64,000 nt of DNA from Chloroflexota bacterium (GTDB lineage: Bacteria > Chloroflexota > UBA6077 > FW602-bin22 > JBCLEL01), in NCBI GenBank assembly GCA_965262895.1, contig OZ253568.1:3547317-3611316 (forward strand), in the 5' to 3' direction. The notes under the pieces were generated by a model that was not told where the DNA came from, searched no databases, and saw nothing but the letters and a program-made list of their open reading frames with translations. Each line of letters starts with the position of its first letter. Position 1 is the stretch's first letter. Of this stretch, positions 833 through 61,140 are shown piece after piece. Both the position numbers and the translations under genes were made by a program.

Positions 833-1108
833 CTAGCTGTCCCCACCCATCCAAACTCGCTCGCCTTTGCCCGGGTTGGACCGATTCTCGATCAAAACTC
901 AATCACCCTCGTCAATATCTTGTTTCATCTCGACGTGCACACCGTCGCTGAGTCGAATCTGAACTGGTATTACAACTGTCACTCCGTCGACGGCCAATTT
1001 CACCTGGGCGCCATCGCTTCGACTGGATACTGCGCTGGCCGGCACCAACCGGACCGCGTTGAGTTCCGACAACGTAATGTCTAAACTGGGTCGGCAGTAA
1101 GAATCTAT
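833..1108 (-). pseudogene. Remnant (C-terminal ~90 codons) of the RND periplasmic adaptor (membrane-fusion protein), with an in-frame TGA
   Basis: Manual translation gives ...DITLSELNAVRLVPASAVSSRSDGAQVKLAVDGVTVVIPVQIRLSDGVHVEMKQDIDEGD*VLIENRSNPGKGERVWMGGDS*. This is the typical MFP C-terminal pattern. TGA at 899-901 is in frame, and the final TAG at 833-835 lies 2 nt before the RND ATG. Similarity stops exactly where repeat cluster 1 begins (about 1102). Confidence 0.6.
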
Positions 1109-1642
1109 TCAGGCGCCGCACGTTGCCAGCATCCCCTTGCGCCATCCGTGTTACGAAAATAGATTGCTCCAGTGACGCTTGCGGGTCCAGGTGACCCCGG
1201 CGAGCCTCGTCATTCCGATCGCCCAACTCGTCGTTCCGGCGGAAGCCGGAATCCAGGGGAGGCGAGGCAGGCGACATTGGAACTCGAGCACTTCCACCAT
1301 CCAGCCACCTCCATTGTTGTACCCTCGTGTTCTGGTGGCAATCGGCATGGGCGATTGGTACGAAAGCATGTCCCGGACTCCGATCCGGGATGGATCCCGG
1401 TACCGGCCGGCGACACCAACCACCGTCACCCGAACAACGACAGCCGAGGGCCGCAGGAGAGATGTAGCGCTGGGGCTTCTCCCCAGCAAGGGGACGGGTT
1501 GGGGGGCACAGACGACACCTGAACCCTTCCATCAACCAACGCACCCAATTTTCATACCTTCGAGTGCCGGCGCCAGCCGGCATGAGCGATTGGTACGAAT
1601 GGTCGTGTTAGGGATCTATTCAGGCGCCGGACCTGGCCAGCA
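1102..1642 (+). repeat. Mosaic hairpin-repeat cluster 1
   Basis: Contains module B (1229-1259), E-like (1318-1356), A (1357-1390), C (1463-1487) and E (1548-1591). The cluster is bracketed by ~30-nt direct repeats aatctattcaggcgccgNacNtNgccagca at 1102-1131 and 1613-1642. ORF-track ORFs here (912..1583, 1179..1664 etc.) are translations of the repeats. Confidence 0.85.
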
Positions 1643-1660
1643 AAACCTTGCTTCATCTGC

Positions 1661-2226
1661 TTAAGAGTTCCTATTGCCGATGCCGTGTAATTCAAGATCT
1701 ACGATGTCGTCCGCCAAAGACTCCGGATCGAGTTCCTGATCTGAGTGGCAAACCATGTGCCGGACGACTTGCTCAACCAGTCCCCCCAACGCAATAGACA
1801 CGACGCGGGTTTCATGCGGGCGAAGATATCCGCGCCGAATTCCGTATTGCAGCCGAGTTTCAAGTGATTGGGCAAAGGCCCGATTGAACTCGAGTAGGCG
1901 AGTATTGAGGTCCGGATCGGCTCCCATTGCCTCTTGGTAGTAGATCCGCGCAAGTTCCCGGTTTTCGTAACACGTCCGCAGCGTGAATAATATCCGCGCC
2001 CGGGCAGTCTCCCGAAATGCGCGAAGGTCGCCTGGTTCGTCAAGAGACGCTGACAATAGTTTGTCAGCGAAAATCGTCAGGAACCGCTCAACCACTTGGC
2101 GGAAGATATCGCTCTTGCTTGCGAAGTAAAGATAGAACGTTCCTTGCGCCACGCCGGCTTCACGAACGTGCGAACCGCCGCATCGAGTAGCTGTTCCCGC
2201 CTTGAATCAGCGTCAGGATTTGCCAC
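1661..2226 (-). pseudogene. TetR/AcrR-family regulator with a frameshifting deletion inside the N-terminal HTH
   Basis: ORF 1661..2152 starts at ...AGVAQGTFYLYFASKSDIF, which is helix 3 of the TetR HTH plus the C-terminal domain. A different frame upstream (GTG 2226) reads VANPDADSRREQLLDAAVRTF, which is helix 1. About 15 residues expected between RTF and REAGVAQGT are missing, and the two parts are out of frame; the junction is near 2156-2169. Confidence 0.6.
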
Positions 2227-2236
2227 GAATCACCTC

Positions 2237-2265
2237 AATAATGAATGACACGTCAGTCATTATAT
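2237..2265. promoter_or_regulatory. Inverted repeat, candidate TetR operator
   Basis: aataatgaatgac-acgtca-gtcattata lies immediately upstream of the TetR remnant. The AATGAC/GTCATT arms are the kind of palindrome bound by TetR-family dimers. Confidence 0.3.
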
Positions 2266-2304
2266 CCTCCGATTGAGCAAAACGCCAGTTTGCGCAAGGT
2301 AGCC

Positions 2305-2403
2305 AACTGTTCAGTCCTAGGGGCCAGTCGCGTGGGCGTCATTGCAATGAACACAGGCGCTCCATTGACCCTCAAGGGCGCCTCGCCACAACCTAAACTC
2401 GCC
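2305..2403 (+). mobile_element. Internally deleted third copy of the MITE seen at 56030 and 57131
   Basis: The left end aactgttcagtcctaggggc...cgtgggcgt matches aagtgttcagatttaggggc...cgtatgggcgt. There are internal aatga..cacaggcg and caagggcg matches. The right end caacctaaactcg matches caaacctgaactg. No clear target-site duplication. Confidence 0.4.
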
Positions 2404-2435
2404 GAACCGTGAATTTACAGCCGATAGTGGAGGCA

Positions 2436-3012
2436 GAGAATGTAGCGCTGGGGCTCGTCCCCAGCCAGGCCCGAGCGGCCGCCGGCCCGAGTCGCCCCAT
2501 CCGGCGGTCCATCAGAGGTAAACGTCACTGTAGGGGCGATTCGCGAATCGCCCTGGGCGGCGTAATCGACGCACCCTCGCCTACCCGCCGCCCACTTTGT
2601 CATTGCCGCGTAGGTGTCTCCCGTAGAATCGCCCCCAATTCGTCATTCCCGCGAAGGCGGGAATCCAGGGGTGGTGTATGGGTGGCAAATGAACCGCAAA
2701 CACCTCCACCAGTCAGCACCTTAATTTTCATACCTTGGTGTGCCGGCCGCAGCCGGCATGAGCGATTGCTATGAAAGCATGTCCCGGACTCCGATCCGGG
2801 ATAGACCGCTCCAGCAGCCTCTCATTGGTCATTCCGGCCCCTCAATTCGTCATTCCGGCGAACGCCGGAATCCAGAGGTGGTGGGGAGAGGGGATTGTAG
2901 CGCTGGGGCTTGTCCCCAGCTTAGGGTGGGCCGCTCGTTCGTGCACGTTGCACCGCCCGGCGTACCACCATTTTCATCCTCTTATGCGGCCTTCGCACGG
3001 CCATGGTGATTC
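2436..3012 (+). repeat. Mosaic hairpin-repeat cluster 2
   Basis: Contains module C (2441-2465), a GTAG plus perfect 20-nt palindrome gggcgattcgcgaatcgccc (2530-2553), B (2641-2671), E (2724-2767), A (2768-2801), B (2848-2878), C (2896-2920) and D (2966-3013). Confidence 0.85.
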
Positions 3013-3124
3013 CCATCTCTGAATACTTACAAATGAAGCCCAGAATTCAGAGTTGATCTTTTCTCAGGCGAAGCGTGTGCCGCAATGAGGTGGCGGGAAT
3101 CGCTTCTCAATTCCGCTTGCCCGG

Positions 3125-4054
3125 TCAGCCCTCGAGTGAACTCCTCAGAGCTGCGCGGACGCCGGCGAAAGACATCCTGCTGTCCGCGACGCGGTCGGGT
3201 CCCCCGCCGCCAGCAGTTGGCGGATGCCAGTGGGTCTCGAGGCTCAACGTGCCGGCATACCCGTCCCGACGGAGAGCCTTGAATTGGCCGACATAGTCCA
3301 CCTCGCCGTTTCCCACCGCTTCCCACGAGGTCAGGCCAGTCTTGTCATCCACCACGCGCGCATCCTTCACGTGCATGTGACATATGAGTGTCTTCACCGC
3401 ATCGTATCCGTCCGGCAAGGGTTTTCCGCCGGATACGTAGTCGTTGCTCGGATCCCATATGGCCCTGATTGACGGATGGTCGGCGGCACGGATTATGCGC
3501 GCCAAGTTTATGCCGGTGTTCCCCCAACACGAGCGGACGTTTTCTAAACCCAAAACTAGGCCGGCTTCCGCCGTCTCATCGCCGGCGATTCGTAATCCTT
3601 CGACGATCTTTTCCAGCATCTCGTCCGGAATTTCCCCGCCTTGTGGCAATCGCGGGCTTGGATTGCCGTAGCCAACCATACTCTCTCGGCGGAAAGAGTA
3701 GGTCCGAACCACCGGCGCCCCCACCCGCTTGGCGACACGAATGCTCGCCTTCAGTATTTTCAGATCTTCTTGGAATGCCGAGTGGTCCGGGATCCTGCCT
3801 ATTGGTACGTTGCCAATCAATACCAACTTTAGAAAAAGTGATCCAATTGCACTCACACTCAATTCGAACTGATCGAGCAAGTCACGCGCCCTGTCAATCT
3901 CTCCCTCATCCATAGCGACGACGGGCTTGCCCCAGAATTCGTACAGCTCGACGCTACGCATTCCCAATTCCTTGGCAACTCCCAGCGCCGTCTCGAGGTC
4001 GGAATGCACCTCGTCTGTACAGACTCCAAAGTTGTGAAGCAGCCTGTCTTTCAT
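3125..4054 (-). CDS. Sugar phosphate isomerase/epimerase (xylose isomerase-like TIM barrel)
   Basis: 309-aa ORF. The sequence pattern (…ELGMRSVELYEFW…, …LGLENV…, …HMHVKDA…, …LSLETHW…) is typical of the AP endonuclease 2 / xylose isomerase-like TIM family. Confidence 0.75.
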   Translation of the reverse strand: MKDRLLHNFGVCTDEVHSDLETALGVAKELGMRSVELYEFWGKPVVAMDEGEIDRARDLLDQFELSVSAIGSLFLKLVLIGNVPIGRIPDHSAFQEDLKILKASIRVAKRVGAPVVRTYSFRRESMVGYGNPSPRLPQGGEIPDEMLEKIVEGLRIAGDETAEAGLVLGLENVRSCWGNTGINLARIIRAADHPSIRAIWDPSNDYVSGGKPLPDGYDAVKTLICHMHVKDARVVDDKTGLTSWEAVGNGEVDYVGQFKALRRDGYAGTLSLETHWHPPTAGGGGPDRVADSRMSFAGVRAALRSSLEG

Positions 4055-4136
4055 TGTTCGTTCCCCGTAGATCCTTTAAAGACCAAATGCGCGATCGTTG
4101 TAATCCCGATTGGATAGACCATTGGACTCTTGCTTC

Positions 4137-5408
4137 TCAGGCCGACGTGAGATAGCGCAGCCACAGGTAACCGGAAGACAGGATCAGCGTCATCACTGTG
4201 ACTATCACCCCATACTTCATGAAATGCACAAATGTGATCTTGTAGCCGTTGCGTTCGGCAATACTCGCGACAATCACATTCGCAGATGCACCTATGATCG
4301 TAGCATTCCCGCCAAAGTCAGCGCCCATCGCCAACGCCCACCACAGCGGCTGAACCGGAAGTACGTTTCCGACTTCTTGTACTAGCGGAATCATGGCTGC
4401 CGTAAATGGGATGTTGTCGACTAATGCCGAGGCCACCGCCGAGAGCCACAGAATCAATAGGCCCGTGAGTACGAGGTTCGTTCCCGTGATTTCCAGCATC
4501 CCGTCGGCTATAGTCTCGATCAGCCCAACGTGCTCTATCCCGCCCACCACTATGAAGAGACCTACGAAGAACAGAAGAGTCGTCCACTCAACCTCTACCA
4601 GAATGTCATGAGGGTCCGGCCGAGTGATGACCATCAACGCTGCCGCGCCCGTCATCGCGACGGTGGCGGCTTCGAGGTGGAGTAACCCGTGAAGAAAAAA
4701 GCCAACTACCGTGGCGGTGAGGACGATTAGACTAGTCCGGAGGAGCTTGGGATTGGTTATCAGGCTCGACGTATCGATCTCGTCAAGTTCCTTTATGGTC
4801 TCCGCTGACGTCTGCAACTCGTTCCGCCAGAACACCCAGATCAATACGATCAAGCCGACCATTCCTAATATAGAAATCGGGAGCATAGCGCCGGCGAAAT
4901 CTAAGAAATGGATGTGAGCAGCGCTGCCGATCAGAATGTTTGGCGGATCTCCGATTAAAGTAGCCGCACCGCCGATGTTCGAGGCGTAAACTTCGGCCAA
5001 GAGCATCGGGACCGGCGATACCCTGAGGACTCCCGCAAGGTAGATTGTGACCGGCGCCACGAGGACCACTGTGGTGACATTGTCCAGCAACGCCGATGCC
5101 CCCGCCGTTAGCAGGCACATTATGATGAGCACCCGCAACGGCCGGCCGTGGCCTAGTTTGGCCGCCATCACCGCCAGCCAGGTGAACACACCCGTGTGGC
5201 GCATCGTGTTGGCGATGATCATCATGCCGATCAATAGGAAGATCACATTCCAGTCTACGGATTCGAATGCTTGTTCCTGCGTGATTATTCCCGACAGGAT
5301 GATTAGCATTGCCCCTGCCAGCGCCGCAATAGTCTTGTGCAATCGCTCGGTCGCGATCACCGCGTATGTGATTAGAAAGATCGTGGCGGCTATGAAAGTT
5401 GGGGTCAC
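4137..5408 (-). CDS. ArsB/NhaD-superfamily permease (citrate-transporter-like anion permease)
   Basis: 423-aa polytopic membrane ORF. The N-terminus MTPTFIAATIFLITYAVIATERLHKTIAALAGAMLII is typical of the ArsB/NhaD/YbiR family. Confidence 0.75.
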   Translation of the reverse strand: MTPTFIAATIFLITYAVIATERLHKTIAALAGAMLIILSGIITQEQAFESVDWNVIFLLIGMMIIANTMRHTGVFTWLAVMAAKLGHGRPLRVLIIMCLLTAGASALLDNVTTVVLVAPVTIYLAGVLRVSPVPMLLAEVYASNIGGAATLIGDPPNILIGSAAHIHFLDFAGAMLPISILGMVGLIVLIWVFWRNELQTSAETIKELDEIDTSSLITNPKLLRTSLIVLTATVVGFFLHGLLHLEAATVAMTGAAALMVITRPDPHDILVEVEWTTLLFFVGLFIVVGGIEHVGLIETIADGMLEITGTNLVLTGLLILWLSAVASALVDNIPFTAAMIPLVQEVGNVLPVQPLWWALAMGADFGGNATIIGASANVIVASIAERNGYKITFVHFMKYGVIVTVMTLILSSGYLWLRYLTSA

Positions 5409-5439
5409 GGATACAACATCCTCGTTTAAGTCTCCTCGT

Positions 5440-5952
5440 TTAAGTCTCGTCGGTTGGATTCTCGATAACTTGGTCCATCCACATGCCCAACAATTGCACT
5501 ACATCTATCACCGCCAAGAGGTGGCCGTCGTTATCCACAACAGGCAAAGCGGTTAGATTGACCACAGGGTCATGTAGTAGACGCAGCGCGTCAACCAAGC
5601 GAGCATCTTGATTGATTGAGACCCCAGGCTCCATCAGTTGAGTGGCGGTACGTGCAGCCTCGAGTTGAGCGAACTCGAACACGTCATCCAGCGTATCTAT
5701 ATCGGCCATTAGCAACTCGGGAGCTAGACGGTCTAGTGCCTCACCGCAAATCGTCGAGAGTCGGATCAGACCCACCAGTTTTTCATCTTCGTCGACCACC
5801 GGTAGTACACGTTGGGTCGGGGCTGAAATGACCGCTTCTACCACCTTCGTCAAGTTGTCGTCCGGTTTGACTGAGGCCAGATCCGCTCTCAAGGGTGAAA
5901 TGACATCGCGAATCAGCGTTGTTCTGGTCACATGAATTCGTGGTGCGGACAC
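5440..5952 (-). CDS. CBS-domain pair protein
   Basis: 170-aa ORF with two CBS-like repeats (…LPVVDEDEKLVGLIR…, …ALPVVDNDGHLLAVID…). It lies directly upstream of the permease gene in the same orientation. Confidence 0.7.
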   Translation of the reverse strand: MSAPRIHVTRTTLIRDVISPLRADLASVKPDDNLTKVVEAVISAPTQRVLPVVDEDEKLVGLIRLSTICGEALDRLAPELLMADIDTLDDVFEFAQLEAARTATQLMEPGVSINQDARLVDALRLLHDPVVNLTALPVVDNDGHLLAVIDVVQLLGMWMDQVIENPTDET

Positions 5953-6002
5953 AGCGTAGCTCCTTGGTTTGTAGTAGCAGGGGTATGCTCAGTATAGCGG
6001 AA

Positions 6003-6605
6003 ATAGTTGGTACGAAAGCATGTCCCGGACTCCGATCCGGGATGAATAGTTCCCGCCACCGAATTCGTCATTCCGGCGAAAGCCGGAATCCAGAGGGGAG
6101 GGGTGGCATCCATGACACCCAAAGATCTCCAACGACCAGGCCTCATTTTCATACCCTGGTCTGCCGGCGGCAACCGGCATGAGCGATTCGTACGAAAACA
6201 GATGGTTCCTGTAGCGCCGGCCGGTCCAGTCGCCCCGGCGAAGGCCGGAATCCAGGGAAGGACGGTTTGTATCGCTCTGCCTCCTACCCATCGATGGGAG
6301 AGGATTGAGGTGAGGGTGAAGAGGTCCCCCGACACCAGCCACAGCCGAGAGCAGAAAGGCAGACTTGTAGCGCTGGGGCTTGTCCCCAGCAAAGGCCACC
6401 CGGCGGGCAGGCAAGACTCGGCAGAGAATACCCGAAGGTCGCCGGCGGTTCCCGCAGAATCGCTCCCACAGTGATTCTATAATAAGACAAACGTTCGCAG
6501 CATCCCGCCACCGGATGTAGGGCCAGCTCGGAGGACTGCCCTGTGTGGAAATCGAGAGGCCTTGGCGGGCCTCCGCCGGTTCCCACAGGATCGTTTCTAC
6601 AAACG
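6003..6605 (+). repeat. Mosaic hairpin-repeat cluster 3
   Basis: Contains A (6009-6042), B (6066-6096), E (6145-6188), an empty A site (6185-6209), B (6229-6256), F (6280-6319), C (6366-6390) and further hairpins (agaatcgctcccacagtgattct; gaggccttggcgggcctc). Confidence 0.85.
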
Positions 6606-6711
6606 TAAAAATGCAAAACAAAAACTACGCCGGCACGCCGCCGGGTATCGGAGTCGCTCGTACGGCCGCCCAACGCGGAGAATCGAGACCCCTGTGCCCA
6701 CGCTCAAGGGT

Positions 6712-6739
6712 TTGACTATACGCCAATACATGCTATATT
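6712..6739 (+). promoter_or_regulatory. Sigma-70-type promoter of the trp leader
   Basis: TTGACT (6712-6717), a 16-nt spacer ending in TGc, then TATATT (6734-6739), giving an extended -10. It sits ~35 nt upstream of the T-box stem I. Confidence 0.55.
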
Positions 6740-6774
6740 TCTTCCACAATTGAATAGCTAAAGACTGCGAACAG

Positions 6775-7041
6775 GATTATTAAGCTTCCCGACGGGGCTC
6801 AGAGAGCCGGGTAAGGTGCGAGCCGGTGCCAGTCAAGGAAGTCGAATGGACCTGGGAGTTGCTGCTTGAAAGCTGGAGCTAGTAGACGCAGCCGGATGTC
6901 TCGCCGTTAATTTGAGGCCGGGTATCGGATGGCTTTGTGTTGTCCCGTATCCCATTATGAGTGGGCTCGCCGCTGGTGAGCCAAGCGGGGTGGCACCGCG
7001 AGAGTTGACCTCACGTCCCCTAGAGGACGCGAGGTTTTTTT
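6775..7041 (+). promoter_or_regulatory. T-box leader (tRNA-Trp specific) with intrinsic terminator
   Basis: Stem I elements AGAGAG...GGUGCGAG (6800-6830). Specifier-loop context GAA-UGG-A (about 6844-6850). Conserved T-box sequence aagcgGGGUGGCACCGCGag (6983-7002). Terminator cctcacgtcc-cctaga-ggacgcgagg followed by T7 (7008-7041). Confidence 0.85.
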
Positions 7042-7058
7042 ATTTGTGGAGGATATTC

Positions 7059-8549
7059 TTGTACACGCCTTCCCCGGCAGAGGTCAAGAACCTGGCAAAG
7101 GATGGCAATCTGGTTCCAGTCTACCGGGAGATACTTGCTGACCTGGAAACGCCGGTTTCAGCCTACATGAAAGTAGCCAACCAAGGCAGCAGTTTCCTCT
7201 TGGAGAGCGTCGAGGGCGGTGAACGGTTGGCTCGATACTCATTTATCGGATGTTCGCCTTTCCTGACGGTGCGAATCAATGCTGGCCAGGCTACCTTGCA
7301 CCGCCAGGGCCGATCCCCAGAACGACGTACGGTTTCCAATCCGATGGATTTGATCCGCGAGTTGATTGGCCAGTATCGCCAGGTTTCGTTAGACGGGCTT
7401 CCACGCTTTCATGGTGGTGCCGTGGGCTACCTGGGTTACGAGTGTTCTCGTTACTTCGAACGCCTTCCCGCGCCTTCGAACGACCCGCTCGATTTGCCGG
7501 AAGCGATATTGCTGTTCACCGATACGCTACTCGTCTTCGACCACATCCAGCACAAAATCAAAGTGGTGAGTCACGTTTATTGCGACGATGGGATTGATTC
7601 TGCCTACGCAAATGCAGTTGATAGGATTGACGCTTTGATTGAACTTCTGCGACGCCCCCTTCCGGCCGCGAAGAGACACGAAGCGCTCCCGCCAGTGGAC
7701 CCAACAGCCGGGCACGAATTCAAGTCGAATATGAGTCAAGAAGCGTATGAAAGCATGGTTGCCCACGGTAAGGAATACATTTTTGCGGGGGATGTCATAC
7801 AGGTTGTTCTTTCACAAAGATTCAGTCGGCCCACTACAGCTGAGCCACTCGATATCTACCGGGCATTGCGGACGATCAATCCCTCACCTTACATGTTTTT
7901 CCTGGACTTGGGTGAATGCCACCTGATCGGAGCCTCGCCCGAATTGCTGGTTCAAGTGGAAGATGGCCAGGTCACGACCCATCCTATCGCCGGAACGCGC
8001 CGGCGAGGTCGAACACCGCAAGAAGACAAAGATCTCGAGCACGAGTTCATCAACGACGAAAAAGAGCGTGCCGAGCACATAATGTTGGTGGACCTGGGCC
8101 GCAATGACATTGGACGGGTCAGCCAACCTGGCACCGTGCAGGTCCCTAGATTGATGGGAATCGACCGGTTGTCGCATGTTATGCATCTGGTGTCCCAGGT
8201 TACTGGGCGACTTCGGCCGGAAATGGACCAGTACGATGCCTTCCAGGCGTGTTTCCCTGCTGGTACGATTTCCGGCGCGCCCAAGATCCGGGCTATGGAG
8301 ATCATTGCCGAGCTTGAACCCGACTTGCGCGGCCCATATTCTGGTGCGGTTGGCTACTTTGGCTACTCCGGAAATTTGGACACGGCAATTACTATTCGGA
8401 CTATGGTCATGAAAGATGGAATCGCACACGTTCAGGCCGGCGCAGGAATCGTAGCTGACTCTGTCCCGGAACGCGAGCACGTCGAGTGCCTGAACAAGGC
8501 GCGGGCTTTACTCCATGCAGTTACCGTTGCCGAAGAACTACACGATTGA
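7059..8549 (+). CDS. trpE: Anthranilate synthase component I
   Basis: The ORF-track ORF (6912..8549) begins inside the T-box leader. The first start after the terminator is TTG 7059, in frame, with GGAGGA at 7048-7053. The product ...NLVPVYREILADLETPVSAYMK...GAPKIRAMEIIAELE... is canonical TrpE. Confidence 0.9.
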   Translation: MYTPSPAEVKNLAKDGNLVPVYREILADLETPVSAYMKVANQGSSFLLESVEGGERLARYSFIGCSPFLTVRINAGQATLHRQGRSPERRTVSNPMDLIRELIGQYRQVSLDGLPRFHGGAVGYLGYECSRYFERLPAPSNDPLDLPEAILLFTDTLLVFDHIQHKIKVVSHVYCDDGIDSAYANAVDRIDALIELLRRPLPAAKRHEALPPVDPTAGHEFKSNMSQEAYESMVAHGKEYIFAGDVIQVVLSQRFSRPTTAEPLDIYRALRTINPSPYMFFLDLGECHLIGASPELLVQVEDGQVTTHPIAGTRRRGRTPQEDKDLEHEFINDEKERAEHIMLVDLGRNDIGRVSQPGTVQVPRLMGIDRLSHVMHLVSQVTGRLRPEMDQYDAFQACFPAGTISGAPKIRAMEIIAELEPDLRGPYSGAVGYFGYSGNLDTAITIRTMVMKDGIAHVQAGAGIVADSVPEREHVECLNKARALLHAVTVAEELHD

Positions 8550-8609
8550 TATGTCTTGCGTAAGAGTGACTAGTGGCGAGGTCGGCAGAGGCCTAGGGAC
8601 GAGGGAAGT

Positions 8610-9185
8610 ATGATCCTACTATTGGATAACTATGATTCGTTTGCCTACAATCTTTATCAATATCTGTCCGAGTTAAAAGCTGAGGTCGTAGTTTATCGCA
8701 ACGATCAAATCACGATTGAGCAGATCGACGCTATGAATCCGGATCAGATAGTGATATCCCCTGGTCCGTGCGGGCCCGCTCAGGCCGGCATATCGAATGA
8801 CGTGATCCGCTACTTCGGGCCGAGGAAGCCCTTGCTTGGAGTATGTCTGGGTCACCAATGTATAGGCTACAGTTTTGGAGGCCGCGTGGTCCGTGCCGAC
8901 AAGGTCATGCACGGCAAGACTTCTCTGATCTACCACGATGGTGCCGGCATACTGAACGACCTGCCTAGCCCATTTGAGGCTATCAGGTATCATTCGCTAA
9001 TCGTCGAGCGCGATACCTTGCCGGCATCGCTGGAAGTAACAGCCCAAACCAGCGACGGCAAGATCATGGCAATGCGCCATCGCGAATATCCTATCGAGAG
9101 CGTCCAATTCCATCCGGAATCTATCATGACCGAAGTGGGCAAAGATTTGCTGCGGAACTTCCTTGAGGTCAAGTGGGAACAATGA
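8610..9185 (+). CDS. trpG: Anthranilate synthase component II (glutamine amidotransferase)
   Basis: 191 aa: [19 protein letters not shown]...GVCLGHQ...HPES, a class I GATase triad. Confidence 0.9.
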
Positions 9186-10213: not shown

Positions 10214-10265
10214 TGCTCTGTTCGCTGCACGTGTTTATGAAGTTGCCTAGCCTAGTTCCCGATCA

Positions 10266-10995
10266 CATTGGTACGAAAGCATGTCCCGGACTCCGATCCG
10301 GGATAGATGGTTCCCGCCACCGAAGTCGTCATTCCGGCGAAAGCCGGAATCCAGAGGGTTGGCAGAGGTGGCACCAATGACAGACGAACACTTCCAGCAA
10401 CCAGACCCGGATTTTCCTACCTTGGTGTGCCGGCACCAGCTGGCATGGGCGATTGGTACGAAAGCATGTCCCGGACTCCTATCCGGGATAGATGGCTCTT
10501 GTCACCAAATTCATTATTACCGCGTAGGCGGAAATCCAAGGAAGGCATGGGTGGCGGAACTGCGCGAATCCATCACAGACCTTCGAACGCGACAATCCGG
10601 AGGGGGCAAGGTTCTGCCTCCTCTCCCTCGACGGCAGACGATCGAGGTGAGGGTGACCCCCGCAGGGCCAGGGCTTGTCTCCAGCCAAGGGCACACGGGC
10701 AACCCGCCCCACACGACCTGCCGTGTGCCATCTCGCGAATTCCCCTCGCTCACTCCGTCATTCCCGCGAAGGCGGGAATCCAGAGGGGGTAGGAGTGGCG
10801 CGAATGACAGCCAAACGCTTCTGAAGACCAAGCGCCATCTTCACGCCTCGCTGTGCCGGCAACGAACGACGCGGACCATTCCTATGAGCATAGATGGTCA
10901 CCACCTAATAAAGAGGGGATCCCCCTCCTCTCCCTCGATGGGAGAGGATTGAGGTGAGGGTGAACCCGGTAGCGCTGGGGCTTGGCCCAAGCCAA
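10266..10995 (+). repeat. Mosaic hairpin-repeat cluster 4, inside the trp operon
   Basis: Contains A (10270-10303), B (10327-10357), E (10411-10454), A (10455-10488), degenerate B (about 10517-10545), F (10617-10655), C-like (10655-10690), B (10756-10786), F (10924-10963) and C (10969-10992). ORF-track ORFs 10281..10952 and 10307..10792 are repeat translations. Confidence 0.9.
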
Positions 10996-11036
10996 CACGC
11001 TCATTCCTTGTACCGTGTCGCCGGGATAAGACTTCG

Positions 11037-13653: not shown

Positions 13654-13654
13654 T

Positions 13655-31834: not shown

Positions 31835-32165
31835 GTCGTCATCGGTACGAACGCATGTCCCGGACTCCGATCCGGGATTGACGCCCCAATTAACCTCGCC
31901 AACGCCTCCCCACACCCTAAGCTTGCCGCACCAAGAATTTCCGGCCGATAGTAGAAGGAAGAAATGTAGCACTGGGCCTTGTCCCCAGCCCCGGGCGCGG
32001 CGGGCAGCCCGCTCTGGTTGTATACCGACCGGCTCCATGTTCATCCTCTTACGTGGCCTTCGCTTGGCCACGGAGATTTCCGTGAACCCGGGAATCCAGA
32101 GGAGGCAAAGATGGCGCCATAGATTCCCGGTTTCTTGGTGTGTTACCATCGTGCTAACAGCTTGG
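31835..32165 (+). repeat. Mosaic hairpin-repeat cluster 5
   Basis: Contains A (31844-31877), C (31965-31989), D (32033-32081) and the B right half (gaacccgggaatccagagg, about 32085-32103). It lies in a divergent intergenic region. Confidence 0.8.
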
Positions 32166-47234: not shown

Positions 47235-47575
47235 CACCATCCCCCGCTCTCGTCATTCCGTCCACGCGTCTCCTCATCACGCGAAGGCGGGAATCCACGA
47301 ACCGTGGCCGCGAGGAAAGACGACAGTCTAGAAACAACGGACTAGGTCCACCGAGAAAAACGTAGCGCTGGGGCTTGTCCCCAGTTCAGGGCACGGCGGG
47401 CAGCGCGCCCTGTTTGTACCGTCCGGCGTCCCACCATTTTCATCCCCTTACGCGGCCTCCGCAAGGCCATCGGCGATTCCGGCGAAAGCACGCCTCGTAC
47501 CCCGATACGGGGCCGGAATCCAGAGGAGAAGTGGACAGCACCAATCTTCATGCCCTGGCGTCCGGCCGGGTTCCG
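47235..47575 (+). repeat. Mosaic hairpin-repeat cluster 6
   Basis: Contains B with upstream half-site (47251-47298), C (47361-47384), D (47432-47480), B carrying a nested 22-23 nt hairpin insert (47473-47526) and an E-like tail. Confidence 0.8.
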
Positions 47576-50443: not shown

Positions 50444-50454
50444 AGATCGCACTA

Positions 50455-55088: not shown

Positions 55089-55094
55089 GACCTC

Positions 55095-55868
55095 CTATTC
55101 TGTGGCTTTCAAAAACTCTTCGGTGGCCGGACCCAGAACTTGATACACGCTTACTACGGTAAAGTTAACCCCGCGCCCGCGTTGAATCTGGGCCCACTCA
55201 TCCGCTTTGTCCAGGTCCATAGTCGGAATGCATATGTGGCGGCCCGCCGATCGCACCTGTCCTACTACCTCCGCTACCACCTTCTGAACCTCGGGGTGCT
55301 CCCAATGACCAGCTACGCCCAACGACTCCGCCATATCCATTAGTCCGAGCATGAAAATGTCGATTCCTGGGACTTTGAGAATCTCCGGCAAGTTATCGAC
55401 GGCTTGCTTTTCCTCGATCATGCCTATGACGATCGATTCCTCGTTGACCCGGTCTTGGTACTCCCTGACGGACGATACGAAGCCGTACCGAGCGGCGCGT
55501 GCCGCTGCATTGCTGCCACGACGACCAACCGGGCGGAAACGAGTCTGTTCGACAATCGCCTCGGCCTGCTCCCGCGTATTCATATGTGGCACCAACACGC
55601 CACCCGCGCCCATGTCCATATAGAGACTTATCATGGCCGGGTCGTTTCGATAAAGTCTGACTATAGGGACCATCCCAGAGTTTTGAGCCGCTCGAACCAT
55701 GCTCTCGCAGGTTTCTGCGTCTATGGTGGCCTGATGAACGTCGATGAAGGTCCATTCGAAGCCGGCGTAGCCGCCAAACTCCACTAGGGCAGGCGATGCG
55801 ACCGCTACCGCCCATCCCCTCAAGTACTCGCCGGCATCAGCCCTCGCAATCAGTGATCTGGCACTCAA
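55095..55868 (-). CDS. HpcH/HpaI-family aldolase
   Basis: 257 aa: ...FIDVHQATID...VRLYRNDP...GAGGVLVPHMNTREQAE...IEEKQAVDNLPEI... are typical class II pyruvate-aldolase motifs. Confidence 0.75.
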   Translation of the reverse strand: MSARSLIARADAGEYLRGWAVAVASPALVEFGGYAGFEWTFIDVHQATIDAETCESMVRAAQNSGMVPIVRLYRNDPAMISLYMDMGAGGVLVPHMNTREQAEAIVEQTRFRPVGRRGSNAAARAARYGFVSSVREYQDRVNEESIVIGMIEEKQAVDNLPEILKVPGIDIFMLGLMDMAESLGVAGHWEHPEVQKVVAEVVGQVRSAGRHICIPTMDLDKADEWAQIQRGRGVNFTVVSVYQVLGPATEEFLKATE

Positions 55869-56029
55869 TTCAAGCTCCTCGGGTAGAATCGTGCGATGAT
55901 GAGGGCACCTACGTTGTGTCAGACGTCCGCTGGTGAGCCAACGTCGGGATCGGCGCCATCATCCGTTGCACCCTCAAAGGATAATTATTCGGGCCACAGC
56001 CGCGCCAGTCAAGCGCCGCAGCCCAACGT

Positions 56030-56266
56030 AAGTGCTCAGATTTAGGGGTACCTAACTCCGTGTGGGCGTAATATCGCGCCAATGAGTGTCTACCACAGGC
56101 GACGACGTCTGATCGGGGAAAGCCAGGAAAGGGTTGCAAGGGCGAAGCCCTTGCCGGGGGATGAGGTCGACCAGATCGTGGAGTTGGAATTCACCCCTTG
56201 ACTGCCGACTCGGCCTATCCAGTTCACGGGCATGGAGGAGAGAAATACACCCAAATCTGAACTGTT
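56030..56266 (+). mobile_element. MITE copy R1 (237 bp)
   Basis: About 85% identical to 57131-57401 apart from two indels. The termini aagtgctcagatttagggg ... cccaaatctgaactgtt form imperfect inverted repeats. It is flanked by a degenerate direct repeat, gcagcccaacg (56018-56028) / gcagctcaaccg (56267-56278). Confidence 0.7.
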
Positions 56267-56438
56267 GCAGCTCAACCGATGCAGAGAGTAATAGATTTCC
56301 GAGAAATTCTTACGGAGCCGCCTGAGGTTGATCCGGATTGCCCATTTGAGCTTTCCAGCGCCGGATTATGTAGCCATCTATAATATACAAACCACAATAT
56401 ACAAACCACAAGTCAACCAAAATTGGAAAGGAGCGACA

Positions 56439-56753
56439 ATGACTAGAGAAGAGAGGGTCGCCGCAGCCAGCGAGATCGGCTCCGGCGAGTTCAAGAGCGT
56501 GGACGTGGACGGCCAGTTGTTATTGTTGGCAAACGTCGAAGGCAAGATCTACGCTGTGTCGGATATCTGCACCCACGAAGAGTGTACCCTATCCGACGGC
56601 GCAATCCTGGAAGGCGTAGAGGTCGAGTGTGAGTGTCACGGTGCGCGCTTCGACGTCACCAACGGCGAGGTCACACAGGAACCGGCGGAAGAGCCCCTGA
56701 AGACCTACGATGTGAGCGTTCAAGGTGACGACGTTCTCGTATCGTTAGACTAG
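56439..56753 (+). CDS. Rieske [2Fe-2S] ferredoxin (oxygenase ferredoxin-component type)
   Basis: ATG 56439 preceded by AAGGAG. The product MTREERVAAASEIGSGEF...CTHEECTLSDG...CECHGARFD has the CxH...CxxH Rieske motifs. Confidence 0.85.
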   Translation: MTREERVAAASEIGSGEFKSVDVDGQLLLLANVEGKIYAVSDICTHEECTLSDGAILEGVEVECECHGARFDVTNGEVTQEPAEEPLKTYDVSVQGDDVLVSLD

Positions 56754-56867
56754 GCTCCCTGGCATCCGCTCAGGTATCAAGACTCAGTTCATACCTGCGT
56801 AAATCGGTATGACGTTTAGCTAGAAAAACGGCTCTGCCGAGTCCGACACTTATCAACTGCCCGCCGA

Positions 56868-57095
56868 CTACGTCACTCCAGGGGAGGGATGGCCGGCGTA
56901 AGTGCGAGCCTTTTCCAAAGGAAATGGCAGGACAAGCTGCCATGTACGACCGGGGAGAGGGTTGAGGTGAGGGTGAATAGAGTCCCGCCCTAGCTCGCGA
57001 CTCCAATTACTGTCGCGTTTGTTGTACCACCCCGCGCCACACCATTTTCATCTCCCTGATGTGGCCTTGCGAAGGCGACGGACTTTCCCCGCCTT
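56868..57095 (+). repeat. Mosaic hairpin-repeat cluster 7
   Basis: Contains a B right half (tccaggggagggatggccggcg), F (56952-56976) and D (57038-57088). The flanks parallel those in cluster 8. Confidence 0.7.
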
Positions 57096-57130
57096 CCTGC
57101 CACAAAACAATAGCAATTGCGTCAGATAGT

Positions 57131-57401
57131 AAGTGTTCAGATTTAGGGGCACCTGCTCCGTATGGGCGTAAGATCGCACCCATGAGGGTCTACCACAGGG
57201 AAGGACGTTTGATCGGGGAAAGCCAGGAAAGGGTTGCAAGGGCGAAGACCTTGCCGGGGGATGAGGTCGACCAGCTCGTGGATTTCGCATCGGATAGGTT
57301 GGAAATCACCCCCTTGATTGCCTACTGAGGTCGCGAGTGGCGACTCGGCCTTTCCGGTGCACGGGCATGGAGGAGAGACGTACACCCAAACCTGAACTGT
57401 T
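57131..57401 (+). mobile_element. MITE copy R2 (271 bp) with perfect target-site duplication
   Basis: Termini are aagtgttcagatttagggg ... cccaaacctgaactgtt; the reverse complement of the right end, aacagttcaggtttggg, matches the left end at 14 of 19 positions. The identical direct repeat gcgtcagatag lies at 57119-57129 and 57402-57412 (13 nt, ttgcgtcagatag, if two terminal T are counted). Confidence 0.8.
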
Positions 57402-57418
57402 GCGTCAGATAGAATATC

Positions 57419-57448
57419 TTGACAATATTGAGTTAGTTAATAGATAAT
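57419..57448 (+). promoter_or_regulatory. Candidate promoter of the rhodanese gene
   Basis: TTGACA (57419-57424), 18 nt, then GATAAT (57443-57448). It lies immediately right of the MITE R2 insertion. Confidence 0.4.
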
Positions 57449-57521
57449 AGCGTCAATTCTTTCTTGTCGCGATTGCCAAAGCAATCAGAATCAGTTCGCT
57501 CACATTGGAGGTTGAGTTCGC

Positions 57522-58367
57522 ATGGGAACGGGATACGCAAACCCGGATGTATTGGTAAACACGAAGTGGGTAGCTCAGAATCTAGACAATTCGACAGTCA
57601 AGCTAGTAGAAGTCGATGTAGACACTAGTGCATATGACAGCGGCCACATAGCCGGGGCAGTCGGTTGGAATTGGCAGACTGACCTGACTACACAGCCGGT
57701 TCGGGACGTGATCAGCATTGATCAGCTTAACCAATTGTTGAGCCAATCCGGCGTCAACGATGGCGACACCCTCGTCCTGTACGGAGACAACAACAACTGG
57801 TTTGCCGCCTGGGCGTTCTGGCAGCTGACAATGGCAGGTTACCCCGACCTCAGACTGATGAATGGAGGTCGTCTGAAGTGGGTATCAGATGAGCGGGCAC
57901 TGACCACCGAAGTGCCTAAGCCGGCAGCCGGCAACGCGACTGTCAGCGGAGATGATCAGAGTCTGCGAGCGTCCCGCGAAGATGTTTTGGCAGGCATTGG
58001 ACAAGCGGAGCGAGGGCTCGTCGACGTGCGTTCTCCTGGGGAGTTCAGCGGCGAGTTGCTGGCCCCAGCAAACCTGCCTCAAGAGGGCGCCCAGCGCGGT
58101 GGACATGTCCCTGGCGCATCCAACATTCCCTGGCTTACGGCAGTTAACGATGACGGCACCTTCAAGTCGGCCGACGAGTTGAGAGACATATACGAGGGCC
58201 AAGGAATCACCGCCGACAAAGACATAGTCGCCTATTGCCGAATCGGTGAGCGGTCTTCGCACAGTTGGTTCGCGTTGAAATACCTGCTCGGTTATCCGAA
58301 CGTGCGTAACTACGACGGATCTTGGACCGAATGGGGCAGCATGGTCGGCGTGCCGATCGAACGATAA
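57522..58367 (+). CDS. Thiosulfate/3-mercaptopyruvate sulfurtransferase (tandem rhodanese domains)
   Basis: 281 aa. Active-site loop YCRIGERSSHSWF. N-terminal inactive rhodanese domain. Confidence 0.85.
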   Translation: MGTGYANPDVLVNTKWVAQNLDNSTVKLVEVDVDTSAYDSGHIAGAVGWNWQTDLTTQPVRDVISIDQLNQLLSQSGVNDGDTLVLYGDNNNWFAAWAFWQLTMAGYPDLRLMNGGRLKWVSDERALTTEVPKPAAGNATVSGDDQSLRASREDVLAGIGQAERGLVDVRSPGEFSGELLAPANLPQEGAQRGGHVPGASNIPWLTAVNDDGTFKSADELRDIYEGQGITADKDIVAYCRIGERSSHSWFALKYLLGYPNVRNYDGSWTEWGSMVGVPIER

Positions 58368-58402
58368 TAGGCGTCTCCGACCCGTAGTATCGAAACTTCA
58401 CT

Positions 58403-58441
58403 GAGACCGGCCGAGCGGAGGCTCGGCCGGTCTCTATTTCT
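58403..58441 (+). terminator. Intrinsic terminator after the rhodanese gene
   Basis: gagaccggccgagc-ggag-gctcggccggtctc (14-bp stem) followed by tatttcttc. Confidence 0.7.
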
Positions 58442-58598
58442 TCGCCTTTTCGCATAACATCGGTCGCCAGACTTTTATTACCATGGTAATCCTCTGAGTA
58501 TTGGCAGTCCGCTCACTCGGCCTTAGTGACGCCCGCGGTTCCGATCGAACGCTCACAATTTTGGCTGAGAAGAAATCCGAAGAAATCCATGGTGTTCT

Positions 58599-60653
58599 TT
58601 GCCGGAGGCGCGGCGAGCGTTGAGTGATTTTGCAGGACAGAAGACACTACTGACTGGTCCGGCCCGTACCGGCAAATCGACGTTCCTCAGGCTTCGCTTG
58701 GGCCGGCTATTGTTGGAGGGCGCCCCCGGCAACCAGATCACCGTGGTGACGGTCAATCGATCGGTTGCCAAACAAATGCGTCAGTACGTCGACTCGCTCG
58801 ATCTGCCCGCCGGAGCAACTCCCCGTTTCGACACTTACTTTGGTATCGCCGGCGCCACGGTTGCACGTTATTGGCCACGTGTGCGCGACTTAATTGCGCC
58901 TAGCCGACGCCGTCTTTACCCTGTTCCTCTGGCAAATGATCTCGCTCAATACCATCTGCGTCAGATAGTCGAATCGACGATGCACAACAGAGGCTACTTT
59001 CGCGGCTTGCGTATCCGGCCCGAACGCATCGTGGCTCAACTTCTGGATACCGCTCACAGTGCTGCCCTGAACGATCGATCGCTATCTGACGCCATAGACC
59101 GCCTGAAGGCTACTTGGACGGGCCAACAGATCCGACTGGAGCATTTTGATCAAGCCCACGCGACTTTGGAGGAATATCGCCAGTTTTGTGCCAAAAACGG
59201 ACTTATAGATGTCTCGTTACTTGTCGAATATTTCAGGCACGTATTGAAGTCGGAGAAAACCGCTCTGGCCAGTCAAAGGAATAGAGCCCGGTACCTCCTC
59301 GCCGACAACCTCGAAGAGCACCCACACGTTTCCCAACAGTTTCTTGTCGATCTCGCCGAACATGCGGAGGAGGCTCTATTCGTTGTGGACGAGCAAGCTG
59401 GCTTCCGCCAGTTCCTTGGCGCTTATCCAGCCGGCGTAGATAAGCTCATCCCGCGCCTCGACCGACAAATCCAGCGCACGGCAGAACCATCCGTCGACCA
59501 GGCGATCGCTGACATCCTGTTAGGAAGCGAGGCAACTGGGCGGTCTACTCCCCCTTCCGACAAGAATTTCGAAGTCTGGCTCAGTCGAACAAGGATCGGG
59601 ATGATCGACTTAGTAGTCGAACGGACGAACGCCATTGTTAACGGCCCCGACGGCGGCGGGCAGCGGGTGTGTTTGCTTTCTCCCTACGTAGACGGCCTGC
59701 TGGCTCTCCTGGTAAAGGATGGATTGTCGAAAAACGGCATCCCCCTGCAAGTCCGTCAGCCAGGTGAGGCGCTTATCGACCGACCGTGTGTCCGAGCATT
59801 CCATGCCGTCGCGGGATTGCTTCATCCACGCTGGGCGAGCCCGGTGAGGTATGACGATCTACGCTTGGCGCTCATGGTGTTCCTGAACCTGGACGCCGTC
59901 ACCGCGTCACTTTTGCTCGACAGGTCGGGTTTCAAGTCGAATGGTAGCTTGGCCCGAATCTCCGAAAGCAGGATTGTTGAGGAGGTGGGTGAAGAGTCGG
60001 TGGCGCAATACAATTTCCTACAAAGATGGTCGGCAGCGTATCAGACCGGAGAAGAGCTATCGGTCGATCTGTTCGTGCGCAGGCTGTTTGGAGAGGTAGT
60101 TGCCCGCTCGTACCAACCGTTGCGAACACCGTCAGACGTTGCGGCTGACTTCAGCCGGCTGCAACACGCGGCCCGTCGCTTCGTAGAATTGGGACCCGAA
60201 GTGTTCGCTGGCGGATCGCCGGCGTCCGGCGCCCGTTTCTTGGAAATGCTTTCGATGCGAGTGACGCCAGCAAAGGCCGATGACGATCCTAGCCTGTCTC
60301 CGGGAGTGGTCTACTTGATGCCAGTTCACACTTTTCTGACTGGCGACCTGACGTGCGACTACCAGTTTTGGCTGGACGCTGGCTCCCCAGCTTGGTGGGA
60401 GCCGCCCACGCGCCCGTTGGCAAACTCACGTATCCTCTTGCAAGATTGGCCGTACGATCGTGTATGGGATGTGCGGGCCAAGAGTTCGGCACAGACAGCT
60501 GCGTTGGCCCGTGTTGTTCAAGGGCTGGCCGCGCGGGCGCGGAATGGCGTAAACATCATCGGTTGCGAGGAAGGTGGCAATACTAGTGGCGCCTTGTGGC
60601 GGGCGGTGACGAAGGCTATCGATCCCATTTTTCCAGAGGCGCCGGTGGCATGA
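58599..60653 (+). CDS. UvrD/AddB-like helicase-related protein with degenerate motifs (P-loop NTPase)
   Basis: 684 aa, TTG start. Walker A GPARTGKST and a Walker-B-like YLLADNLEE. The later helicase motifs are weak (…ALARVVQGLAARARNGVNII). No nuclease domain recognised. Confidence 0.6.
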   Translation: MPEARRALSDFAGQKTLLTGPARTGKSTFLRLRLGRLLLEGAPGNQITVVTVNRSVAKQMRQYVDSLDLPAGATPRFDTYFGIAGATVARYWPRVRDLIAPSRRRLYPVPLANDLAQYHLRQIVESTMHNRGYFRGLRIRPERIVAQLLDTAHSAALNDRSLSDAIDRLKATWTGQQIRLEHFDQAHATLEEYRQFCAKNGLIDVSLLVEYFRHVLKSEKTALASQRNRARYLLADNLEEHPHVSQQFLVDLAEHAEEALFVVDEQAGFRQFLGAYPAGVDKLIPRLDRQIQRTAEPSVDQAIADILLGSEATGRSTPPSDKNFEVWLSRTRIGMIDLVVERTNAIVNGPDGGGQRVCLLSPYVDGLLALLVKDGLSKNGIPLQVRQPGEALIDRPCVRAFHAVAGLLHPRWASPVRYDDLRLALMVFLNLDAVTASLLLDRSGFKSNGSLARISESRIVEEVGEESVAQYNFLQRWSAAYQTGEELSVDLFVRRLFGEVVARSYQPLRTPSDVAADFSRLQHAARRFVELGPEVFAGGSPASGARFLEMLSMRVTPAKADDDPSLSPGVVYLMPVHTFLTGDLTCDYQFWLDAGSPAWWEPPTRPLANSRILLQDWPYDRVWDVRAKSSAQTAALARVVQGLAARARNGVNIIGCEEGGNTSGALWRAVTKAIDPIFPEAPVA

Positions 60654-60664
60654 AACCGATTGGC

Positions 60665-61140
60665 CTTCTTTCGGTTGACGTCGGTACGAAAATAGACGGT
60701 CCCCGTCATCGGTACGAAAGCATGTCCCGGACTCCGATCCGGGCTAGATGGCTCCCCTCCCCTTCTGGATTCCGGCGAAGGCCGGAATCCAGAAGGGGAG
60801 GGGAGAGGCAAGATCGCCACACAATAGGCAAGAACCCGGCACCCCACCATTTTCATCCTCTTATATGGCCCGCGCAAGTCCATGGTGATTCCCGCGCATG
60901 TGCGAATCCAGGGGAGGCATGGCCGGCGCACCATCGAACCTGCTCCAACGAAACGGACGCCACAAGCTGCCAGATCTCCCTCTCCATTTGGGAGAGGGTC
61001 GGGGTGAGGGTAAAAAAACCCTCGACATTCCGGCGAGAGCATGTCCCGCACCTCGATACCTGGCCGGAACCCAGGGGAGGCATGGGCCGCGCAAATGACC
61101 CTCAAACACCTCCACCTGCCTGCCCCCTCAATCCCCACAC
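60665..61140 (+). repeat. Mosaic hairpin-repeat cluster 8, between the two helicase genes
   Basis: Contains an empty A site (60683-60700), A (60711-60743), B extended to a perfect 25-bp-stem hairpin (60752-60805), D (60845-60892), a B variant (about 60888-60925), F (60976-61012) and a further B-like right half (about 61060-61085). Confidence 0.85.

Follow-up and report, generated by a model that had tools for sequence, protein, structure and literature searches.

The window analysed here, a 64,000-nt stretch of Chloroflexota contig OZ253568.1, contains eight intergenic clusters built from six short hairpin modules, named A to F. Judged by sequence, the clusters form a mosaic of the kind represented by the Neisseria intergenic mosaic elements (NIMEs) and by the bacterial interspersed mosaic elements (BIMEs) of E. 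coli. Two of the modules can be assigned with high confidence to described types of repetitive extragenic palindromic (REP) sequence: B to the CGTC-1 REPs, in the family of dRS3, NTS and the Ssn-related motif (SRM), and C to the GTAG-tagged REPs, the type associated with RAYT transposases (HUH tyrosine transposases). No catalogued match appears to exist for modules A, D, E and F or for the composite units built from the modules. The units are repeated head to tail on a single strand, and their orientation along the chromosome points to a link with replication.

Repeat clusters in the window and in related genomes

Copies of the modules in the window were counted with a pattern search allowing at most three mismatches, for which 100 shuffles served as the control, and with blastn-short as a second, more sensitive search. 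The pattern search returned seven copies each of A, B and C and four of E, where the shuffles led to an expectation of zero. D and F are looser families, with one and two copies at this threshold; blastn-short found four of each, and 12 of B when half copies were included, and it overlooked a D at 57038 and an F at 60976 that are recognisable by eye. All copies of all six modules are on the plus strand. The eight clusters and the modules had been named in a preliminary description made from the letters alone. They were recovered far above the chance level set by the shuffles, and the start coordinates agreed within a few bases in every case. The clusters total 3827 nt, or 6.0% of the window, as had been estimated. 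The two composite arrangements proposed in that description are also real: A-B-E-A at 10270-10454, with the next unit starting at 10455, and C, 45 nt, D and B at 2896-3013.

The earlier comparison with BIMEs and NIMEs was apt, in that the clusters are intergenic mosaics of short hairpin modules in preferred orders, with no mobilising gene in the window. No transposase, RAYT or integrase was seen among 39 open reading frames (ORFs) of the window that were compared with Pfam, or in the syntenic annotation. Four of the long ORFs lying over the clusters, which had been read as translations of the repeats, were searched against Pfam and gave no match. Independent assemblies carry the clusters at identical intergenic positions, and the clusters are therefore not assembly artefacts.

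A scan of species-representative genomes for the 24-nt A core provided a wider sample, with 67 matches listed and an 8-kb block taken for each. Among the matches listed, the A core was present in two Chloroflexota species represented by metagenome-assembled genomes (MAGs), OZ244845.1 and CAXXUG01. The complete 3.88-Mb chromosome OZ244845.1 contained at least 62 of these blocks and at least about 100 exact A-core copies, and CAXXUG01 contained at least five blocks among the matches listed. The window is syntenic with OZ244845.1 at about 2.145-2.209 Mb, with 93-97% identity over most aligned stretches and 86-89% in two. Together, the window and the 67 loci (cited by L number where needed) make up about 0.6 Mb, a sample biased to A-bearing blocks in which about 0.5 Mb of the relative, or about 16% of its genome, could be read. 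The modules are repeated well beyond the window: blastn-short found 671 module hits in this sample, in at least 130 clusters with a median size of 419 nt and a maximum of 1.37 kb.

Family membership and folding of the modules

The GTAG- and CGTC-tagged REP superfamilies were defined by Di Nocera, De Gregorio and Rocco in 2013 (PMC3733652). The hallmarks of a CGTC-1 REP are a CGTC tag, an 8-bp stem beginning with AT, a 4-nt loop and a CCA tail (PMC3733652). In the work of Chenal et al. in 2025, the dRS3 repeat of Neisseria is part of the 28-nt NTS, which was generalised as the SRM. The NTS is bound by a small GIY-YIG nuclease, SsnA, whose cut falls immediately upstream of the motif and which acts only on single-stranded DNA (ssDNA) and only on the forward strand (PMC11893778).

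Family statistics were taken from 105 parsed copies of B and 104 of C. An unpaired CGTC tag lies 5' of the B hairpin in 104 copies and a CCA tail lies 3' of it in 102. The B stem has 8 bp, begins with AT and is perfectly paired in 90 of the 105 copies, the 4-nt loop is GAAG, GAAA or GGAA, and compensatory pairing is found in each of five stem variants. The published SRM regular expression matched five times in the window, always on the plus strand, compared with 0.6 times in shuffles, and 83 times in the loci of OZ244845.1; two of the window copies match the NTS consensus (CGTCATTCCCGCGMAVGCGGGAATCYRG) exactly. Because its tag, stem, loop and tail and both search motifs agree with every sequence feature of the type, B is classed as a CGTC-1 REP. 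C carries a GTAG tag, in 102 of its 104 copies, ahead of a hairpin with a 7-bp stem and a CTTGT loop, and two compensatory variants of the stem occur. The unpaired CGTC tags, CCA tails and GTAG tags are retained in about 98% of copies.

Modules A, D, E and F are accessory hairpins. Neither these modules nor the composite units had an Rfam match, either in a gathering-threshold scan of the whole window or in permissive scans of 1000-11100 and 55800-61300. The A sequence had no match in the searchable literature, and the A core was absent from the viral contigs scanned. Rfam matches at a 25-bp palindrome, formed by an altered B copy, were to miRNA families and are spurious, and no family was returned for any module. 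The preliminary description had held that this was a different module set belonging to no described family. That view stands for A, D, E, F and the composites and fails for B (CGTC-1/NTS/SRM) and C (GTAG REP), and a match to an already catalogued family with known biology, which it had named as grounds for rejection, was found for B and C only.

Computed as single-stranded DNA, every module folds into the hairpin that had been described for it. The fold z-scores were -3.9 for B, -3.4 for C, -3.0 for E and -2.7 for F, and were weaker for A (-1.7) and D (-1.6). One B copy in the window has undergone quasi-palindrome conversion, while its orthologue is canonical (Table 1). The change is the classical signature of hairpin-templated (quasi-palindrome) correction, and this copy is the best evidence here for hairpin extrusion in vivo.

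Array grammar

Both composites reappear with fixed spacing across the 130 sampled clusters. E is followed by A after 5 nt (103 cases), A by B after 59, 40 or 14 nt, B by E after 55 or 48 nt, A by C after 85 nt and C by E after 69 nt. The resulting head-to-tail units are A-B-E (about 230 nt), A-C-E (about 257 nt) and C-E (147 nt); B divides the units within A-B-E arrays, and A-C-E and C-E arrays are without B. In an alignment of A-C-E units conservation was best at the hairpins, and there was little covariation because the copies are young.

The A hairpin is optional, being present at 102 ATT-GGTACGAAA sites and missing at 50, and an A-like hairpin is nested in the GAAA loop of seven B copies. 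Junctions in which CGTCATT (51 cases) or GCGATT runs directly into GGTACGAAA recur throughout the sample, and ends of D or E are found joined to what is left of a B copy. The 22-nt insert TCGAAGACT(T/A)CGC(G/A)AGGCGAGG, a further very small insertion module, was seen inside C hairpin stems (L017 6608-6650, L012, L021 and L049), and the same insert (TCGAAGACT...GAGG) was seen inside copies of a longer repeat, R, in L010, L005 and L053. The A-C-E unit was also considered as a giant CGTC REP with an expanded loop (CGTC-ATTGGTAC-GAAA...GTACCAAA-CCA). Seven long examples fit, there is no intact short form, and the resemblance is suggestive only.

Orientation and replication strand

Nearly all module hits (663 of 671) are on the majority strand of their own locus, and there are no inverted pairs. 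Along the chromosome the orientations fall into long blocks, with 19 runs compared with 31.5 expected (runs test, z = -3.3). Repeat orientation was correlated with GC skew (r = -0.56 raw and -0.45 with the repeats masked), the two being of opposite sign in 51 of 71 blocks, and the repeat-bearing strand, as written, is more C-rich by about 0.047 skew inside each gene-strand class. The correlation with the coding strand was only -0.07, and the flanking genes were arranged ++ in 22 cases, -- in 23, divergently in 22 and convergently in 22. Since orientation tracks GC skew and ignores gene direction, a link with replication is indicated.

Leading strands are generally G-rich, as a general rule that is not specific to the Chloroflexota lineage studied here. 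Because the repeats are on the C-rich strand, this rule would place the tagged, cleavable strand on the presumed leading-strand template. Such a placement would fit the avoidance of self-cleavage by an ssDNA nuclease that is specific for the forward strand. Replication strand is not discussed in the paper describing Ssn (PMC11893778).

Turnover between genomes and within arrays

The window and OZ244845.1, at about 96% identity between the genomes, have clusters at common positions with differing contents. Whole units are swapped between shared anchor modules, a 24-nt nested hairpin is present at an orthologous B in one genome only, and there is a half-B duplication of 13 nt. Units within one array are 94-96% identical, compared with 82-83% across arrays, and the maximum across arrays is 95-97%, reached by units in arrays megabases apart. 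Local duplication therefore dominates, and arrays grow mostly in this way, with recent dispersal occurring too.

Unique flanking direct repeats of 14-18 nt were found at only three of about 110 clusters, and one of these cases is doubtful. Such bracketing repeats may be long target duplications from block insertion. In the window, cluster 1 is bracketed by the unique 16-nt direct repeat ATCTATTCAGGCGCCG (1103-1118 and 1614-1629), and clusters in L022 and L059 have comparable bracketing repeats, likewise unique, of 14 and 18 nt. In OZ244845.1, a module F of the trp operon contains an IS481-like insertion sequence that encodes an rve integrase core (L003 3492-4794) and is missing from the window.

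More distant relatives were collected via TrpC homologues, and about 20 kb was read around each of three loci, L068, L069 and L070, with TrpC proteins 84%, 79% and 73% identical to that of the window. The trpD-trpC spacer is 823 nt long in the window, where it holds a full array (cluster 4). It is 178 nt in L068, with F and C only, 51 nt and empty in L069, and 710 nt in L070, where it contains a RAYT gene and another GTAG REP. Across the clade, this spacer has repeatedly served as a landing site. No SRM copy was found in the 20 kb or so read around each of the three loci, at 73-84% TrpC identity.

Candidate enzymes

Genes for enzymes that could act on the hairpins were searched for with Ssn and RAYT probe sequences, among them a RAYT of the lineage and an ssn-like protein. 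A cognate ssn gene codes for a single-domain GIY-YIG protein (cd10448) of about 94 aa and usually has copies of the motif on its flanks. The RAYT gene in the trpD-trpC spacer of L070 (8359-8988, GCA_038913435.1) is flanked, and interrupted in frame, by GTAGGGGCGACCCGCCGGGTCGCCCCTAC REPs; its assignment comes from a match to NCBIfam REP_Tyr_transpos (E = 4e-17) and from homologues named RayT. None of the best 120 RAYT homologues could be traced to the two complete relatives.

The A core was also present in two JGI metagenome contigs that are AT-rich and not similar to the Chloroflexota sequences compared. One of them, L071 (JGI contig Ga0247841_10032023), had no megablast match to the Chloroflexota sequences. 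At 615-735 of this contig an inverted pair of NTS copies encloses a 42-nt palindrome that has an identical A core at its centre. About 2 kb away, at 2475-3011, is a gene for a 96-aa single-domain GIY-YIG (ssn-like) protein, which the probes recover at E = 2e-39, with three forward NTS copies upstream and inverted copies downstream. Its presence in an unrelated contig indicates that the A core is not lineage-specific. The SRM layout in L071 is the usual inverted one, whereas the Chloroflexota arrays are strictly direct.

Proposed explanation and alternatives

The explanation that we favour, as probable though far from secure, is that the arrays are non-coding, non-autonomous mosaics of REP-class hairpins, of the NIME/BIME kind, which are processed in trans by an Ssn-type nuclease, a RAYT or both, and in which orientation is filtered by replication. 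Confidence in the array architecture, as in the identity of B and C, is high, and it is moderate for the manner in which the arrays are processed, seeded, remodelled and oriented. Hairpins would extrude where the DNA is single-stranded at replication forks, and enzymes encoded elsewhere in the genome would nick the extruded hairpins. Nicking would seed new copies beside or inside old ones, hairpin loops and the positions following ...ATT junctions being examples, and the arrays would subsequently lengthen, shorten and trade units through gene conversion and through slipped-strand or unequal recombination. Because the proposed nicking and seeding reactions would be strand-specific, copies would persist only when oriented one way with respect to the moving fork.

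Several observations weigh against processing in trans with replication-filtered orientation. Probe searches found no Ssn gene and no RAYT or Y1 gene in the window and the 67 loci (about 16% of the genome), and the REPs that flank the RAYT gene of L070 are of another GTAG type than C. No clean pair of filled and empty sites with defined ends, which would demonstrate transposition, was recovered, and recombination and gene conversion could account for the polymorphisms. Insertion of the RAYT type, into the lagging-strand template, predicts the GTAG strand on the G-rich strand, and the opposite was found. At least 18 switches of orientation occur along the chromosome, and these need many rearrangements or a cause beyond simple replichore structure. 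Finally, CGTC and GTAG REPs are typically found as inverted (head-to-head) dimers, with head-to-tail pairs rare (PMC3733652), whereas the modules here are all head to tail.

A possible, if somewhat unlikely, alternative is that these are fossil REP-derived repeats with no active enzyme, spread and changed today only by host replication slippage, unequal crossing-over, gene conversion and occasional capture at breaks, and that their strand polarity is a by-product of hairpin-dependent slippage or of selection. Several of the features described above agree with this explanation: units inside an array are far more alike than units of separate arrays, half-B copies are duplicated in tandem (21 nt and 13 nt), whole units are replaced between shared anchor modules, and the few clusters bracketed by unique direct repeats have repeats of variable length (14-18 nt) and no defined element ends. 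The absence of an Ssn or RAYT gene from the sampled 16% of the genome agrees with it, and it has been proposed that CGTC REPs may have lost their enzyme (Di Nocera 2013, PMC3733652). However, units that are 95-97% identical in arrays megabases apart indicate that recent dispersal exists. The retention of unpaired CGTC, CCA and GTAG sequences at about 98% suggests ongoing protein recognition, and among genomes that have more than 200 SRMs, 81% possess a gene for an Ssn homologue (PMC11893778).

It is less likely still that the A-to-E unit is a miniature ssDNA transposon of the IS200/IS605 (PATE) type, with a subterminal hairpin at each end, that inserts 3' of a short target ...ATT and recreates this target with its own right end, ...GCGATT. 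Insertion of this kind would account for the head-to-tail arrangement and for the cases in which B is interrupted after CGTCATT. It would also fit the recurrent junctions of CGTCATT (51 cases) and GCGATT with GGTACGAAA, the D or E ends fused to the remainder of B, and the strand-specific, replication-linked polarity, since IS608 and ISDra2 have a strand-specific polarity coupled to replication. On the other hand, the sample contained no Y1 transposase, no orthologous empty site with exact boundaries was found, and the high similarity within arrays favours duplication over serial insertion. If the active strand is the one written here, the polarity also has the reverse of the sign expected for IS200/IS605.

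A role in RNA, whether as small RNAs, terminators, processing sites or stabilisers of mRNA, is suggested by the stable hairpins, by the array in the trp operon that must be co-transcribed and by the mRNA stabilisation reported for REPs in other bacteria, but it is highly improbable given that orientation is independent of flanking genes, whose four arrangements are equally frequent, that there are no Rfam matches, that the operon-internal array has no terminator-like sites and that the RNA form of the NTS is not bound by Ssn (PMC11893778). A terminator function for that array (cluster 4) was considered separately and is unsupported, as prediction gave neither terminator-like nor promoter-like sites in it.

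Comparison with known systems

The closest likeness is to the NTS/SRM systems of Neisseria, where the dRS3 hairpin is found in NIMEs. Module B is the same 28-nt sequence (two exact NTS copies and five SRM fits), and NIMEs are likewise large, almost wholly extragenic mosaics in which a CGTC hairpin is interleaved with other repeat families. Parkhill's NIMEs of 2000 are reportedly arrays made up of repeat units of 50-150 bp that are each delimited by dRS3 hairpins. The arrays described here differ from the NTS/SRM systems in that their host is a member of the Chloroflexota and not of the Pseudomonadati, in that they run head to tail on one strand with what appears to be replication-linked polarity, in that many of their units (A-C-E) are without B, and in that the readable part of the genome yielded no ssn gene.

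Among REPs, B shares the tag, stem, loop and tail of CGTC-1 and C shares the tag and 7-bp stem of the GTAG type, and the RAYT gene with GTAG REPs in the trpD-trpC spacer of a relative recalls REP/RAYT systems. Small hairpins nested in other palindromes, as found here as well, are known from the GTAG-23 REPs of T. roseum (Chloroflexi) and the CGTC-1 REPs of H. neapolitanus (PMC3733652). Chloroflexi are not among the hosts listed for CGTC REPs in the 2013 survey (PMC3733652). Unlike the REP superfamilies described before, CGTC and GTAG types are here fused into common composite units. The inverted doublets of classical REPs and REPINs are absent (663 of 671 hits are on the same strand), and these are not REPINs in the defined sense. 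Classical REPs are also mostly downstream of genes and prefer convergent and unidirectional spacers, whereas the arrays here have no such preference.

E. coli BIMEs resemble these arrays as intergenic mosaics of hairpin repeats with specific linkers and a composite unit in tandem. Their REPs are inverted or alternating (Y/Z), whereas the modules here are strictly direct and in this respect are not BIMEs; the unit here is also much longer, at about 230-260 nt with three hairpins. The IS200/IS605 elements and PATEs share hairpins near both unit ends, replication-coupled strand specificity and the lack of terminal inverted repeats, and differ in that no Y1 transposase was found here, that no defined cleavage or target site emerged and that the sign of the polarity is apparently opposite.

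The arrays are of interest as a natural case for the Ssn ssDNA nucleases, which have been a known partner of CGTC/SRM hairpins only since 2025. Exact NTS-type hairpins occur in a distant phylum, fused with GTAG REPs and new hairpins and placed in one orientation relative to strand asymmetry. If the polarity is linked to replication, the arrays would allow a direct test of in vivo cutting on exposed single strands. In chromosomal integrons the recombinogenic strand is kept on the leading-strand template, and a replication-linked polarity would extend this principle of strand placement. For the annotation of Chloroflexota MAGs the arrays matter in another way, as they yield many spurious ORFs and sit in operons such as trpD-trpC.

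A more speculative idea, which we regard as doubtful, is that the orientation is a genome-wide adaptation that keeps the strand cleavable by Ssn or RAYT off the exposed lagging-strand template, and that the tiny hairpins are themselves mobile. If so, the genome could carry hundreds of cleavable sites without cutting its own forks, and incoming or otherwise exposed single strands with the forward motif would stay cleavable. The hairpins of 22-26 nt, namely the A core, which is conserved across phyla, and the TCGAAGACT...GAGG insert, may be mobile units that home into the GAAA loops of CGTC hairpins.

Individual clusters and other features

The clusters of the window and the principal module copies are listed in Table 1. 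Cluster 2 contains a tandem half-B duplication of 21 nt at 2817-2859 and a second type of GTAG REP at about 2530-2556. The internal units of cluster 3 are not the same as those in OZ244845.1. Cluster 6 is antisense to both of its flanking genes, which are on the minus strand, and cluster 8 has a UvrD-like helicase gene on each side.

Table 1. Hairpin-module clusters and module copies in the window, with positions in nucleotides from its first base
Feature	Position	Strand	Content or remark
Cluster 1	1102..1642	+	Diverged B at 1228-1256 (CGTCGTTCC stem arm), partial E and A, C, then E; between convergent genes
Cluster 2	2436..3012	+	Order C ... B-E-A-B-C-D; exact NTS copy at 2641-2668
Cluster 3	6003..6605	+	A-B-E-(empty A site)-degenerate B-F-C; divergent promoter region, upstream of T-box leader and trpE
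Cluster 4	10266..10995	+	A-B-E-A-B'-F-C'-B-E'-F-C; within trp operon, trpD-trpC spacer
Cluster 5	31835..32165	+	A, C, D-like, 3' half of B; divergent intergenic region
Cluster 6	47235..47575	+	Interrupted B, C, D, then B with A-like hairpin nested in loop (47473-47526)
Cluster 7	56868..57095	+	B tail, 3' half of F, D
Cluster 8	60665..61140	+	Empty A site, A, palindromised B, D, F, B with A-like loop hairpin (about 61025-61075)
B copy identical to Neisseria NTS consensus, CGTCATTCCCGCGAAGGCGGGAATCCAG	2641..2668	+	Exact match
B copy, second identical to NTS consensus	10756..10783	+	Exact match
B copy fitting degenerate SRM motif	2848..2875	+	Published motif
B copy fitting SRM motif	6066..6093	+	Published motif
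B copy fitting SRM motif	10327..10354	+	OZ244845.1 orthologue has 24-nt A-like hairpin in loop
B copy with CGTCATT tag overwritten, giving perfect 25-bp palindrome	60754..60810	+	OZ244845.1 orthologue has canonical tag
C, GTAG-tagged REP	1464-1487, 2442-2465, 2897-2920, 6367-6390, 10969-10992, 31966-31989, 47362-47385	+	Tag and hairpin
A core hairpin	1366-1391, 2777-2802, 6018-6043, 10279-10304, 10464-10489, 31853-31878, 60720-60745	+	Pattern search

Two ordinary features of the window fit a Chloroflexota host: a T-box leader upstream of trpE (6758-7023, plus strand) and a c-di-AMP (ydaO-type) riboswitch (50453-50586, minus strand). A TetR-family gene (2163; about 1661-2230, minus strand) has 43 nt fewer than its orthologue in OZ244845.1, and is probably a pseudogene.

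The repeat R, of about 250-400 nt, has a closing helix and hairpin insertions of variable length. It occurs in the window at 56028-56268 and 57129-57403 (plus strand) and in L027, L012, L010, L005, L053, L051 and L047, with at least ten copies in the sampled loci and no Rfam match. A riboswitch function for R was rejected, as the genes downstream of its copies are mutually unrelated (Rieske, rhodanese, RibBA, AlaX-like and amidohydrolase), and R is more reminiscent of a dispersed element or of a novel structured RNA. One R copy, in L047, houses a 1.4-kb element (4219-5597) that has inverted repeats, CAGGGGTTTTCAATTCTTTAA..., at its termini and has duplicated 8 bp of its target, TTGCAAGG, and this element contains an entire hairpin-module cluster.

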